Shown here: positions 17,809-29,027 of the stretch, piece by piece
Layout of the letters: each line of letters begins with the position of its first letter
How positions within the stretch are numbered: the stretch's first letter is position 1
NCBI GenBank assembly: GCA_963677845.1
Contig: OY782498.1
Location: 1,431,518 to 1,495,517, forward strand
DNA length: 64,000 bases
Direction: 5' to 3'
From: an uncultured Pseudodesulfovibrio sp.
GTDB lineage: Bacteria > Desulfobacterota > Desulfovibrionia > Desulfovibrionales > Desulfovibrionaceae
Notes under the pieces: generated by a model
Database searches by the model: none
What the model was told of the DNA's origin: nothing
Seen by the model: the letters and a program-made list of their open reading frames with translations, nothing else
Program-made: the position numbers and the translations under genes

Positions 17809-19104
17809 CTACAACCCTACACTCTTCAAATCATCTCCGAGATATTCACGTTCGTTTTCGCCGAGGATACCAAGCGAAAGACAAATGAGCGTCCAGAGGT
17901 GAACTACCGGAAAGTGTGCGCCGGAGTATTCACTGAGATCATGAATCTGAGAATGGCAGTTGTGACATGGCGCGATACAATAGTCTGCCTTGGTGCGGAG
18001 AATCTGGTCGAGCTTGATCTGACCGTACTTGCGCCGTTCGTCTGCAAAACCTGACTGGAGGAATCCGCCGCCACCACCGCAACAGTAATTGTTGGATTTA
18101 TTCGGCCACATATCGATGAAATTCTCTTCACCGACAACGGATTTAACCACAAAACGAAGGTCCTCGGCCACCGGATCACCCAGTGATTTCCGTACAAGCT
18201 GACACGGGTCCTGAACCGTGAAGGTCACACCCAAGTCCTTGTTCCAATCGGAATTGACTGGCAGCTTGCCCTCACGAATCCACTGGGCATACAGCCGGAT
18301 GATGCTTTCCATTTCGAAGTCGTGTTCGACATTAAACTTTTGCAGTCCAGCCCGGACTGCATAAAATTCGTGTCCTCACTCCGTATTGAGCCAGACCTTG
18401 CACCCCAACTCTTCCACAGCTCCTGCCTTGTTGCGCACCACGTTTTCCCATGCGTCATCATCGGCCAAAAACATACAGTAATTTTCTGCTGCCCAGCCTT
18501 TGGTGCTATATGTCCAATCCGCGCCGACCAGATTAAGTATCTTCCAGAGCGGCACCATTTCGTCCGGCTCGGTAACTGGTTCGCGTGAGTTTTGATTCAG
18601 GAAATAATAGGCGCCCTTTCTGTCTACAGAGACTTGAATATTTTCCTGACCAGGCTGCATTTCACGTACTTCTTCGGCCACATCCTCGACCACAAATTTA
18701 AAATCTTCGCTGGATGCACCCATGGCGCTGTTGCCCGGAGTGTTCAATGCCTGCTCACAGGAACCAAGTATTCCCTTCGGACGATCTTCCCTTGGCCATG
18801 ATTGACGACATTGGTAGATCAGTTGAGGGATATCCACTTCCATGGGGCACGCATGAACGCACCGCCGACACATGGTGCACAGCCACACCCAAGGTGTTGA
18901 CCGAATCGTCTCTTCCTGCCCCATAAGCGCTAAACGCAGAAATTTACGAGGGTCCATGTCTTCCATACCCGTAGCAGGACATCCGGCAGAGCAGGCTCCA
19001 CACGTGAGACACATATTCAAATTACCGCCCTCGGGCAGCAGTTCCCGGACCTTGTCCACCAGTTCCGATTGCTTCGGCTCGATAAGAAGCGCTGCTTCAC
19101 CCAT
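17809..19104 (-). CDS. HdrD/GlpC-like Fe-S oxidoreductase, selenocysteine-containing (in-frame TGA at 18376-18378)
   Basis: Track ORFs 18376-19104 and 17809-18312 are in the same frame. They are separated only by a TGA and 21 sense codons (U-GHEFYAVRAGLQKFNVEHDFE-M). The N-terminus has two CxxCxxCxxxCP motifs. The C-terminus has a complete CCG domain (DPC-x39-CCGGGGG...CHNC). A hairpin lies 15 nt after the TGA. Confidence 0.75.
18342..18360 (-). promoter_or_regulatory. Candidate bacterial SECIS hairpin for the hdrD-like gene
   Basis: In the mRNA, GCAGUCC-GGGCU-GGACUGC forms a perfect 7-bp stem with a G-rich apical loop, starting 15 nt 3' of the UGA. Confidence 0.55.
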
Positions 19105-19211
19105 GGCTAACTCCTTTCGCGGACTTATGCCGCCGGATTCCCGGGAGCGGTCACCCGCTCCCGAAAACCGTTTATCGTAAGGTTCAACTCTTATTCACAC
19201 TGAATTTTCGT

Positions 19212-20114
19212 CTAGGCCAAGGCCTCTGTCTGAACAGCTGCGCCTGTCTGGTCGTACATAAGGCCACAACGCAGATCGAAGTGACGGTTGACGCTCATGG
19301 TCGGACACGGTGCATTCAATGCCACCTGAGTGACTGTCGAGCCAAGGAAAGCCTTTTCTGGGTCACGTTCCTTGGAATGGTGAGCCATGATGATCAGGTC
19401 TGCATCGGCCTGATTCCCCATACGCAGAATTTCCATGGAAGGCTTGCCGCGACAGGCTTCGAAACCGCACTCGCCAATACCGTCGAGGCGAGGACCATAT
19501 TCATCTTCCAGTCGACCGATGACCTCGGAACGGCTGTTTCCATTTTCCACGACATGCATGATCTTGAGATTGGCCTTGTACTGACGGGCCATCTGGCCGC
19601 CGTAACTTACGGCGCATTCAGCTTGATCAGAGAAGTCGGTTGCCACAAGGATGTTGCTATACAGCGGTTCCTTACAGACAACGTCCTTGTGAACAATCAT
19701 GACCGGACAGCGGGCCTTCTGGCTAACGCGTTCGAGCGTACTGCCTGTCATACCCCACATCTTGGAACGGGTCTCCTCGTATTCCTTGGTGTGCGGTCCC
19801 ATGACGATAAGATCAGTGTTCTTCTTTCGTGCCAGACGCAGAATTTCGTTGTGTGGGATACCCGGTACGACAATAATTTGTGATTCCGGGATGCCCTCAA
19901 GCATTTCCGCATAGGTTTCAGAGATCTGTTCCTTGAGCCGAGAAGTTTCACCCGAAGGTTCCAGGGTTTCGATGGAGCCCCAGCCCTGAGCCATGCCCGC
20001 TACGTGAACGAGGTAAAGCTTGGACTCGAACTTACGAGCGAATTCCATTGCTGCCTGAACCGCGCAATTGTCGATTCCGGTAGGAGTGACTCCTACGATG
20101 ATGTCCTTAAACAT
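19212..20114 (-). CDS. Tandem-domain universal stress protein
   Basis: Two UspA-like halves (IIVGVT..LYLVHV..LIVMG; ILVATDFS..LKIMHV..LIIMAHH). The start overlaps the hdrB stop by 8 nt. Confidence 0.85.
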   Translation of the reverse strand: MFKDIIVGVTPTGIDNCAVQAAMEFARKFESKLYLVHVAGMAQGWGSIETLEPSGETSRLKEQISETYAEMLEGIPESQIIVVPGIPHNEILRLARKKNTDLIVMGPHTKEYEETRSKMWGMTGSTLERVSQKARCPVMIVHKDVVCKEPLYSNILVATDFSDQAECAVSYGGQMARQYKANLKIMHVVENGNSRSEVIGRLEDEYGPRLDGIGECGFEACRGKPSMEILRMGNQADADLIIMAHHSKERDPEKAFLGSTVTQVALNAPCPTMSVNRHFDLRCGLMYDQTGAAVQTEALA

Positions 20115-28735: not shown

Positions 28736-28757
28736 GGTTCCTCCATTCCTCGACGTG

Positions 28758-29027
28758 TCAACGACTGCTCTTGCCGCTGGTCAGTTCCAAAGTCAGTTCG
28801 CCCACCAGTTTTTTGAGTTCTTCATTTTCAGCGATCAACTCAGATTCACTCGAAAGATTTGGTCGCTTTTCAAAAATCTGATGGCATTGCTCCAGGAATT
28901 GCCCTCGCCACTTGTAATACTGTCCGGGTCGCAGGTCGTGGGAGCGACACAAGTCATTGACGCACCCTCCCATAAGGCCTTCCAAGACGATCTTTGCTTT
29001 TTTCCGTGCATCCCATTTGCGCCGCAT
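28758..29027 (-). CDS. Stand-alone IS3/IS911 OrfA-like HTH protein with no OrfB and no inverted repeats
   Basis: Start taken at MRRKWDARKKAKIVLEGL (GGAGG RBS). It has the HTH_Tnp_1-like pattern ..NDLCRSHDLRPGQYYKWRGQF.. and a leucine-zipper-like ELIAENEELKKLVGELTLEL. It ends 22 nt before the hdrA start. Confidence 0.6.
   Translation of the reverse strand: MRRKWDARKKAKIVLEGLMGGCVNDLCRSHDLRPGQYYKWRGQFLEQCHQIFEKRPNLSSESELIAENEELKKLVGELTLELTSGKSSR

Follow-up and report, generated by a model that had tools for sequence, protein, structure and literature searches.

To our knowledge, FlxABCD-HdrABC is the only bacterial heterodisulfide reductase (Hdr)-type complex of sulfate reducers with experimental support. 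Clusters of a different composition have been reported in two other bacteria. In a proteome study of Syntrophobacter fumaroxidans, Sfum_0819-0824 were described as HdrABC together with an iron-sulfur (Fe-S) protein resembling the beta subunits of hydrogenases and formate dehydrogenases (Fdh), MvhD and HdrL; the set was complete only with sulfate, and confurcation towards DsrC was proposed by the authors. The genome paper of Desulfobacterium autotrophicum HRM2 lists, as locus VIII, a tandem hdrL/hdrA, mvhD, fdhB, hdrC and hdrB, followed by hdrD. No biochemical characterisation of either cluster was found in the literature. Here, we analyze a related nine-gene Hdr-type operon of an uncultured Pseudodesulfovibrio sp., located within a 64,000-nt stretch of contig OY782498.1 (assembly GCA_963677845.1). 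This whole stretch is referred to below as the window, and all coordinates are given with respect to its first nucleotide.

The nine open reading frames (ORFs) occupy positions 17809-29027 of the window, all on the minus strand. In the order of transcription they encode (i) a small helix-turn-helix (HTH) protein, (ii) HdrA, (iii) MvhD, (iv) a protein resembling FdhB and ElpB of archaeal complexes (referred to as FdhB-like), (v) a double-length, tandem HdrA, (vi) HdrC, (vii) HdrB, (viii) a universal-stress protein (Usp) and (ix) an HdrD-like protein. With the best-supported start codons, the successive intergenic distances are 22, 6, 18, 28, 25, -4, -8 and 107 nt, where the negative values denote the ATGA overlap of hdrC with hdrB and the 8-nt overlap of hdrB with usp, respectively. 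A GGAGG-type ribosome-binding site precedes each of the nine start codons. The coordinates and overlaps given in an earlier note on this DNA, which was based on the nucleotide sequence and a list of ORFs, proved to be right. Domain assignments (Pfam and NCBIfam) also confirmed the HdrABC-type core with an MvhD connector described there, and the double-length HdrA paralogue with a receiver (REC) domain, the tandem Usp and the selenocysteine (Sec)-containing HdrD-like protein are all present. The cluster contains an HdrABC-type module in the broad sense: two CCG domains in HdrB, two [4Fe-4S] motifs in HdrC, and the flavin adenine dinucleotide (FAD) domain and cluster motif in HdrA. On balance, and with moderate confidence, we read the whole region as a single regulated operon, its ninth gene loosely attached, that codes for a cytoplasmic multi-flavin heterodisulfide-reductase-type complex.

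A synteny search across related genomes had been suggested in the earlier note. The loci used for this comparison (19 in total, designated here by L numbers where they have to be distinguished) come from a single scan in which species-representative genomes were queried with the FdhB-like protein, and all nine window proteins were compared with them by tblastn. The closest matches were found in Pseudodesulfovibrio metagenome-assembled genomes (MAGs), with 87% identity for the FdhB-like protein and up to 98% for MvhD, which assigns the window to a Pseudodesulfovibrio-like representative of the Desulfovibrionaceae. This analysis revealed that the gene order recurs: a six-gene core (HdrA-MvhD-FdhB-like-tandem HdrA-HdrC-HdrB) is arranged identically in 14 of the 19 loci, as well as in three further metagenome or MAG loci. 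Three of the other five loci are truncated by a contig end and one has degraded hdrC/hdrB genes (in L016, HdrA through tandem HdrA are present, followed by a fragment of hdrC only, with no hdrB in a further 1.5 kb). The fifth, from Desulfonema magnum (L013), is the sole locus with just the first three genes (HdrA::GltD, MvhD and FdhB-like).

The longer order HTH-HdrA-MvhD-FdhB-like-tandem HdrA-HdrC-HdrB-Usp is complete in all Pseudodesulfovibrio, Desulfovibrionaceae and Desulfomicrobium-like loci with enough sequence. The core is retained in Syntrophobacter MAGs (L014, L015) and in other Desulfobacterota (L012, L017, L018), where identity of the large subunit ranges from 45 to 58%. Since the six-gene core recurs in order across loci at such low identity, the arrangement is not due to chance.

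Judging from the published descriptions, the content and order of the core are shared with Sfum_0819-0824 and locus VIII, and this was confirmed at the sequence level in the Syntrophobacter MAG loci L014 and L015. However, the window cluster differs from these in several respects. Its first HdrA lacks the GltD/NfnB-like NAD(P)H module that lies behind the name HdrL, the receiver in its tandem HdrA is degenerate whereas that of the Syntrophobacter-type clusters is canonical, and the operon is extended in its lineage by the HTH_Tnp_1 gene and the tandem Usp. Some members of this lineage, including that in the window, carry the Sec-containing HdrD gene downstream; in locus VIII of strain HRM2 an hdrD gene follows as well. 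Literature searches on Pseudodesulfovibrio HdrA/MvhD, the heterodisulfide reductase of strain ND132 and the transcriptomics of piezophiles found nothing relevant. The core cluster is thus known yet uncharacterised, and the Desulfovibrionaceae variant is distinct: the term “undescribed”, used earlier for the complex, is fair for this variant and its function, but not for the core, which had already been reported from S. fumaroxidans and D. autotrophicum.

The first HdrA (26711-28735) is of canonical length (674 aa) and matches NCBIfam HdrA2 with E=4.3e-238. It comprises an N-terminal Fe-S domain, an FAD/thioredoxin reductase (TrxR)-like domain, an inserted ferredoxin domain and a C-terminal ferredoxin domain, and its DCAAC motif preserves the residues corresponding to Cys194/Cys197 of M. 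wolfeii HdrA. When tested for the CxGSRD...C..CC cluster motif, this protein and both halves of the tandem HdrA were found to retain C...C..CC. In the first HdrA of five related loci (L012-L015 and L026), a GltD/NfnB-like insertion of 1.2-1.4 kb (approximately 400 aa; Fer4_20 and Pyr_redox_2 domains) is located at about residues 287-298, where it separates the two cluster motifs within the inserted ferredoxin domain. Pfam detected no such module in either of the window HdrA proteins. HdrL in the literature denotes a fusion of HdrA with a glutamate-synthase/NfnB-like NAD(P)H module (Strittmatter 2009), so the earlier label “HdrL(REC)” for the larger of the two correctly identified a large HdrA with a receiver domain, but under an ambiguous name.

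This larger protein, the fused tandem HdrA (21649-25083; 1144 aa), was delimited by BLASTP against the window HdrA and by phmmer against 5odc_A and 8rvu_a. Its ATG start codon at 25083 is preceded by a GGGAGG ribosome-binding site, and alignments with orthologues begin at residue 1. Residues 1-185 correspond to HdrA residues 145-317, i.e. the start of the FAD domain and the inserted ferredoxin domain; they are followed by the receiver insert (residues 188-305) and by the remainder of the TrxR-like domain (residues 309-553). The second half begins with the HdrA N-terminal Fe-S domain (residues 593-720) and continues with a second FAD-domain start (residues 725-818), after which no inserted ferredoxin domain is found, and with a second TrxR-like domain and C-terminal ferredoxin domain (residues 830-1140). 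The first half therefore has neither an N-terminal nor a C-terminal domain, and its DHCGMC motif provides the equivalents of Cys194/Cys197 of M. wolfeii HdrA. The second half has the N-terminal, FAD and C-terminal ferredoxin domains, and there is no cysteine at its Cys197 site. By alignment, the tandem HdrA is a fusion of two incomplete, complementary HdrA units, i.e. a pseudo-heterodimer.

Complementarity of the N-terminal Fe-S domain and Cys197 is shared with the fused or tandem HdrA proteins of anaerobic methanotrophic archaea (ANME; HdrA 3/4, 5/6 and 12/13). In Chadwick et al. (2022), such complementarity is used to argue that the ANME proteins act as heterodimers, and ANME neighbourhoods with FdhB but no FdhA, as well as an NfnB-like insertion in the HdrA ferredoxin domain, are described. 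Compared with the ANME fusions, the order of the halves is reversed in the window protein, whose N-terminal half lacks the N-terminal domain and carries Cys197. The window protein is also distinguished by its bacterial host and by the receiver insert, which the consulted passages of that paper do not mention.

The receiver domain within the first half of the tandem HdrA (24169-24522; Pfam Response_reg, E=5.6e-14) is degenerate: the phospho-acceptor Asp is replaced by Gly, DD by DR and Thr by Ala, and Lys is retained. An alignment of 16 orthologues showed that all receivers of Desulfovibrionaceae have Gly at the acceptor position, DR or DK in place of DD, and Ala in place of Thr. The receivers of the Syntrophobacter-type loci L012, L014 and L015 are canonical, with DD, D, T and K all present. 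The ferredoxin-REC-TrxR junction was used in a search of 1.84 billion representative proteins, which yielded only 26 representatives at E<=1e-30, most of them full-length proteins of approximately 1130-1175 aa or fragments thereof; such an architecture is therefore rare. L026 also encodes another HdrA-like protein (20078-21146), which carries two receiver domains at its N terminus and has several histidine kinases around it.

The canonical receivers in the HdrA flavoproteins of Syntrophobacter-type relatives suggest that Hdr flavoproteins may be controlled by phosphorylation. This idea can be extended to a wider model, which we regard as rather improbable, in which the two halves of the tandem HdrA would pair within the molecule as an asymmetric heterodimer whose bifurcation is gated by the receiver, inserted beside the ferredoxin-facing domain, and which acts alongside an ElpB-like, non-F420 arm. 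The receiver could serve as a direct phospho-switch of electron flow in the relatives, where it is canonical and the locus is ringed by histidine kinases, and would have degenerated to a fixed structural or docking element in Desulfovibrionaceae, control having moved to the sigma-54 activator and the HTH protein. If this were true, the REC-gated tandem HdrA and the ElpB-like arm would constitute a bacterial two-stage bifurcation machine without a characterised counterpart.

The MvhD/FlpD-type [2Fe-2S] connector is encoded at 26276-26704 (Pfam PF02662, E=1e-53); in NCBIfam it also matches VhuD and the C-terminal MvhD part of HdrA2. The adjacent FdhB/ElpB-like Fe-S (possibly flavo-) protein (25112-26257) contains FrhB_FdhB_C and dicluster domains. 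[quoted passage not shown] An AlphaFold2 model of the protein (predicted local distance difference test score 80.4) was aligned by Foldseek with template modelling (TM) scores of 0.73 to 7bkb_E and 0.74 to 8rvu_E, and it matches FrhB, Fsr and HCAR in part only. None of its Fe-S cysteine motifs varies among 22 homologues. The protein had previously been called “FrhB-like”; it is indeed an Fe-S protein of the FrhB/FdhB type, but these E-values and TM scores place it better with FdhB/ElpB. The reclassification did not make the cluster identical to any characterised operon, since it has a tandem HdrA in addition and no FdhA/ElpA.

By their sequence matches, the FdhB-like protein and MvhD are homologous to the donor arm of methanogens (FdhB/ElpB-MvhD). 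Feeding of HdrA by ElpB-ElpC has been demonstrated experimentally and structurally in Methanothermobacter marburgensis, and in the archaeal complexes a hydride donor reduces the FAD of FdhB/ElpB, from which electrons flow through Fe-S clusters and MvhD to HdrA's bifurcating FAD. The window cluster shares a homologous donor arm beside HdrA, HdrC and HdrB with ElpABC-HdrABC of M. marburgensis and FdhAB-MvhD-HdrABC of M. hungatei. However, it lacks an FdhA/ElpA partner, contains an extra fused tandem HdrA with a receiver domain, and resides in a bacterial host; its substrate cannot be the coenzyme M-coenzyme B heterodisulfide (CoM-S-S-CoB). This host is not known to make coenzyme F420, which is unlikely to occur in the family.

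Public databases label the FdhB-like orthologues “formate dehydrogenase subunit beta”. This name, together with the fact that the best sequence and structure matches are FdhB subunits of Fdh-Hdr complexes, would fit a formate-linked system in which the FdhB-like protein docks to an FdhA encoded elsewhere. In that case, the cluster would be the bacterial equivalent of the methanogen FdhAB-MvhD-HdrABC and would couple the oxidation of formate to the reduction of ferredoxin and a disulfide, and in two other hdr loci of D. autotrophicum fdhA is indeed found right after fdhB. However, neither the cluster nor the syntenic loci nor the scanned window ORFs (the 26 larger ORFs flanking the cluster) revealed an FdhA/ElpA or molybdopterin gene, and Elp provides a case of an FdhB homologue that works without formate dehydrogenase activity. 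We consider a formate-linked function very unlikely.

The search for other input modules gave a similar picture. No hydrogenase, Fdh catalytic subunit or FlxABC genes were identified in the cluster or among the 26 flanking ORFs, in agreement with what had been noticed from the sequence earlier, and the [NiFe]-hydrogenase genes MvhA/MvhG are likewise missing from the cluster, these ORFs and the syntenic loci. FlxABCD-HdrABC of Desulfovibrio vulgaris shares with the window cluster a cytoplasmic HdrABC-type module, an MvhD-like connector (FlxD) and, as predicted for the window operon, control by a sigma-54 response regulator. In contrast, domains of FlxA (FAD/NAD(P)-binding), FlxB and FlxC were not found in the window cluster or its flanks, and the FdhB-like protein and the tandem HdrA stand in place of FlxABC. 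DsrC is the acceptor proposed for the D. vulgaris complex in the literature.

A solitary GltD/NfnB/SudA-like gene (31106-32338, minus strand; Fer4_20 and Pyr_redox_2 domains, 410 aa) is located 2 kb upstream of the operon, beyond a sigma-54 regulator gene, and its product is 35-37% identical to the module inside the first HdrA of Syntrophobacter-type clusters. The possibility that this gene is the conserved missing NAD(P)H module was rejected, since none of the related Desulfovibrionaceae loci has it in its flanks. The window also contains genes of a two-subunit 2-oxoacid:ferredoxin oxidoreductase (47594-50168, minus strand), which could provide ferredoxin.

The HdrC-like protein (21057-21623) has two [4Fe-4S] motifs and matches NCBIfam CoB_CoM_SS_C (E=7.3e-25) as well as Pfam Fer4_8/9/17. 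The HdrB-like protein (20107-21060) has two complete CCG motifs (Pfam CCG, E=2.5e-23, in two stretches), of which the first set consists of C9, C41-C42-G and C79xxC82 and is followed by the second; its NCBIfam matches, both below the cut-off, are SdhE (1.4e-54) and HdrB (3.7e-47). The tandem Usp (19212-20114; 300 aa; Pfam Usp, E=4.8e-38, in two stretches) is encoded by a gene that is syntenic in all Desulfovibrionaceae loci reaching that position and in L017 and L018 (59-60% identity).

The usp gene is the last one ahead of a GC-rich hairpin without a T-run (19142-19163, minus strand), which lies between usp and hdrD in an intergenic region with a predicted folding energy of -42.3 kcal/mol (z=-4.3). 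Nine other loci, including L001, L002, L004-L006, L008, L009 and L019, have a hairpin at this position that is alike in shape but not in sequence. This structure may act as a partial terminator or attenuator, as a stabiliser of the RNA 3'-end, or as a processing site.

Beyond the hairpin, the ninth gene (17809-19104) encodes a soluble HdrD/HmcF/TmcB/DsrK-like Fe-S protein of 431 aa with Sec at codon 243. NCBIfam matches to HmcF (1.8e-44), TmcB (8e-41) and DsrK (1.5e-33) are all below the cut-off. The protein is organized as an HdrC-HdrB fusion, with two N-terminal [4Fe-4S] motifs, a degenerate first CCG domain predicted to contain Sec and a complete second CCG domain. Its family comprises 2945 matches annotated as “(Fe-S)-binding protein”. 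The in-frame TGA codon (18376-18378) is present in all seven orthologues of this HdrD, with the downstream frame conserved, and 11 full-length homologues of 61-69% identity all have Cys (NTE-C-GH) in the Sec column. A predicted hairpin resembling a selenocysteine insertion sequence (SECIS) begins 15 nt past the UGA codon (UGA and hairpin, 18342-18378; hairpin, 18342-18360, GCAGUCC-GGGCU-GGACUGC, minus strand), with a stem of 7-8 bp and a folding energy of -23.3 kcal/mol (z=-4.3). The stem recurs in 7/7 orthologues with one compensatory pair and wobble changes, a pattern that is confounded by coding conservation. As judged from this conservation, the HdrD-like protein is a genuine selenoprotein. 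A Sec-containing HdrD has already been reported in the genome paper of D. autotrophicum HRM2.

Since a PDB profile search found no solved structure of the DsrK/HmcF type, the location of Sec was deduced from motif spacing alone, which would put it at the first Cys of CxxC in the degenerate first CCG domain. A search for tRNA genes in the window found only tRNA-Ser(CGA) (14538-14630, plus strand).

Several observations indicate that hdrD is loosely coupled to the preceding genes: the conserved hairpin, the variable presence of the gene, which lacks an orthologue in five of the 14 loci extending past usp, and the occurrence of its Cys homologues in unrelated contexts. HdrD(Sec) has orthologues in L001-L004 and L009-L011 but none in L005, L006, L008 and L017-L019. 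The loci without it carry a 29%-identical paralogue, and L001, L002, L004 and L009 carry both genes. The Cys homologues adjoin a molybdopterin oxidoreductase gene in Desulfolutivibrio and EtfAB in Desulfonema. HdrD is thus, by its genomic distribution, best regarded as a neighbouring enzyme, possibly expressed by read-through, and not as a core subunit. The earlier proposal that two CCG catalytic units act in one complex is therefore unsupported, the second unit being encoded behind the hairpin and variably present.

The second HdrD-like paralogue is highly conserved, has PDCGGG at the Sec column (e.g. L001 18601-19782, L005 17142-18365 and L017 17688-18896) and, in the majority of related loci, is situated after usp or HdrD(Sec); in the window, a convergent DEAD-box helicase gene is found instead. 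A strong intrinsic terminator with a U-rich tail (17745-17786, minus strand; -34.7 kcal/mol, z=-7.0) lies after hdrD and probably serves both hdrD and the convergent helicase gene. Scans for sigma-70 promoters and intrinsic terminators inside the cluster gave no more matches than in shuffled sequence, the terminator scan having also overlooked this long-loop terminator 3' of hdrD.

Upstream of the operon, a divergently oriented gene (29616-31022, plus strand) encodes a sigma-54-dependent response regulator with REC, AAA+ and Fis-type HTH domains (Pfam Sigma54_activat, E=4e-63, and Response_reg). Its position is conserved in all Desulfovibrionaceae loci (59-75% identity) and in L016-L018 (46%), and PAS histidine kinase genes adjoin it in L020 and L022. 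The regulator is likely to be the activator of the operon. Its GAYTSA sequence is a variant of the GAFTGA loop; where the phospho-acceptor would be expected, its receiver has the sequence AVLLGDD, which makes the register of the acceptor Asp ambiguous. A sigma-54 response regulator of D. vulgaris, DVU2394, controls DVU2405-DVU2399. By analogy, this control may be taken as a precedent for a sigma-54-regulated Hdr operon. We take DVU2405-DVU2399 to be the adh-hdr-flx operon.

Alignment of the intergenic regions of eight loci revealed that the most conserved blocks are three GTCTTG-N5-CAAGAC palindromes (29468-29484, 29344-29360 and 29325-29341, minus strand), which are candidate enhancer (upstream activating sequence) binding sites. 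The same alignment identified a sigma-54-like -24/-12 element, GGTACGCATCTTGT (GGCACGCATCTTGT in relatives), at 29223-29236 (minus strand), approximately 195 nt upstream of the first start codon. Its GG-A----T--TG positions are invariant in the eight loci, and the invariant GG-N10-TG element reads GGcACGCATCTTGT. A search with a strict sigma-54 consensus expression returned no site in the promoter region, and the element was seen only in the multi-locus alignment. The rpoN gene is itself encoded in the window (5502-6911, minus strand). The leader of about 190 nt (29028-29222, minus strand) contains a conserved block, GACAGTCTCATACTCTCCA, and no Rfam family was matched in the leader or in the rest of the cluster.

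The first gene of the operon (28758-29027) encodes an HTH_Tnp_1 (IS3 OrfA-like) protein of 89 aa (Pfam PF01527, E=2.5e-10) with a leucine-zipper-like C-terminal helix and a conserved CxxxxC motif. The gene is syntenic in every Desulfovibrionaceae locus reaching that position. Only 67 homologues were found in a collection of 5.8 billion proteins, each cluster of them occurring on very few contigs, and in the two distant homologues examined (52-55% identity) the gene is directly upstream of hdrA and opposite the sigma-54 activator gene. Synonymous codon differences (33-40) exceed non-synonymous ones (16-29) over the 89 codons, and no transposase catalytic ORF (OrfB/DDE) adjoins the gene. The possibility that it is an insertion sequence remnant or a mobile element was rejected on account of its single copy, fixed position, lack of a catalytic ORF and purifying selection. 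The earlier annotation as “HTH” was correct and can be made more exact: the product is of the IS3-OrfA type and, as its conservation indicates, is a domesticated DNA-binding-type protein fixed as the first, single-copy gene of the operon. Its cysteine pair (C22 and C27), located in or near the HTH, is invariant and might be a thiol redox switch. Public records name the HTH orthologues (P0242-P0307) “transposase” or “IS3/IS911 family”.

With the HTH protein, Usp and the receiver-bearing HdrA in view, it might be asked whether the cluster is a redox-sensing or stress module that adjusts the thiol/disulfide or ferredoxin state under a specific stress rather than serving bulk energy conservation. 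Three of the nine genes are of the regulatory or stress type, there is a dedicated enhancer-binding protein with PAS kinases nearby in relatives, and some relatives have canonical, probably phosphorylatable receivers inside Hdr flavoproteins. Nevertheless, the full catalytic set is conserved (three HdrA FAD modules, MvhD, the Fe-S chain of the FdhB-like protein, HdrC and the two-CCG HdrB), and the S. fumaroxidans homologue is among the abundant proteins under sulfate. Regulation and catalysis can, moreover, coexist. A role confined to stress sensing is, in our view, highly improbable.

Returning to the reading of the cluster as one operon for a multi-flavin Hdr-type complex, the following mechanism can be envisaged. 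Transcription would start from the sigma-54-type promoter and be activated by the divergent NtrC-type regulator bound to the three palindromes, as the conservation of these elements suggests. The core proteins would assemble into a single cytoplasmic complex or into two that are tightly coupled. Within it, the FdhB/ElpB-like protein and MvhD would make up the input arm, an arm whose homology is found in the sequences and whose wiring is presumed to run from a [4Fe-4S] chain through the [2Fe-2S] cluster of MvhD to the FAD in one of the HdrA modules. The hydride donor of the FdhB-like protein may be NAD(P)H or a different compound. The tandem HdrA could function as its own asymmetric heterodimer, one half providing the Cys197-type ligand and the ferredoxin-facing domain and the other the N- and C-terminal Fe-S domains, and would pass electrons to HdrC and HdrB. 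HdrB would then reduce a disulfide or trisulfide, most plausibly that of DsrC, with ferredoxin as the low-potential partner. Overall, ferredoxin, a mid-potential two-electron donor and a thiol/disulfide couple would be linked through flavin-based bifurcation or confurcation. The degenerate receiver, Usp and the small HTH protein may be regulatory or assembly accessories, and HdrD(Sec) would be a separate soluble CCG enzyme, expressed by read-through past the hairpin or independently.

A number of points weigh against this reading. (i) The HdrA, HdrB and HdrC proteins miss the NCBIfam equivalog cut-offs (HdrA2, 792 vs 1100 bits; HdrB, 161 vs 345; HdrC, 88 vs 160) and, because of these scores, are not orthologues of CoM-S-S-CoB reductase subunits, though they are homologous to them. 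(ii) No DsrC-like ORF was found in the 64-kb window, so DsrC is assigned as the substrate by analogy only. (iii) The N-terminal FrhB-type domain PF04422 was undetected in the FdhB-like protein even by a permissive Pfam search; according to the structural model, the protein would retain the FdhB/ElpB fold over its full length, with an FrhB N-terminal domain too diverged for Pfam, so that its FAD or deazaflavin site, which would accept the hydride, is putative. (iv) The relatives with an NfnB-like NAD(P)H module still retain the FdhB-like subunit, and because of this the protein may be a wire between two HdrA modules and not the entry site. (v) The -12 element is TTGT, not the canonical TTGC, in all loci, whereas GG and the spacing are conserved. 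(vi) In the literature other than the Pereira 2011 survey, no description or experimental study of the Desulfovibrionaceae variant was found. (vii) With a canonical and a tandem HdrA but a single HdrBC, the cluster could just as well specify two enzymes. The mechanism is weakest with regard to the donor, because the cluster has no NfnB-like module, FdhA, hydrogenase or Flx genes and because the FdhB-like protein may be a wire. The statement in the earlier note that the donor and the thiol/disulfide substrate are both unknown stands.

If the last of these points were correct, a soluble, ferredoxin- or donor-linked HdrA-MvhD-FdhB-like oxidoreductase and a separate, asymmetric tandem HdrA-HdrC-HdrB disulfide reductase would be co-transcribed only for the sake of a shared pathway. 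The canonical HdrA has both the N-terminal domain and Cys197 and can therefore homodimerise alone, there are three HdrA-type FAD modules for a single HdrBC, and D. magnum (L013) has HdrA::GltD, MvhD and FdhB-like without the tandem HdrA or HdrCB. On the other hand, L013 is the only locus with enough sequence in which the six genes are not adjacent and in constant order, the whole S. fumaroxidans set was detected jointly and only under sulfate, and in all characterised cases MvhD and FdhB/ElpB feed an HdrA that bears HdrBC. An arrangement of two separate enzymes is therefore regarded as unlikely, though its probability is appreciable.

Cytoplasmic electron movement among ferredoxin, pyridine nucleotides and DsrC in sulfate reducers is only partly resolved. 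The operon represents a second Hdr-type system, widespread in Pseudodesulfovibrio, Maridesulfovibrio, Desulfomicrobium-like and Syntrophobacter lineages, and it unites a methanogen-type donor arm (FdhB/ElpB-MvhD) with a fused, asymmetric HdrA and a receiver inserted therein. The analysis also flags two systematic annotation errors, “transposase” for the first gene and “formate dehydrogenase” for the FdhB-like gene. The cultivated carriers of the operon, P. mercurii ND132, P. indicus and Maridesulfovibrio species, should allow direct experiments on the electron donor and acceptor and on what the fused HdrA does.

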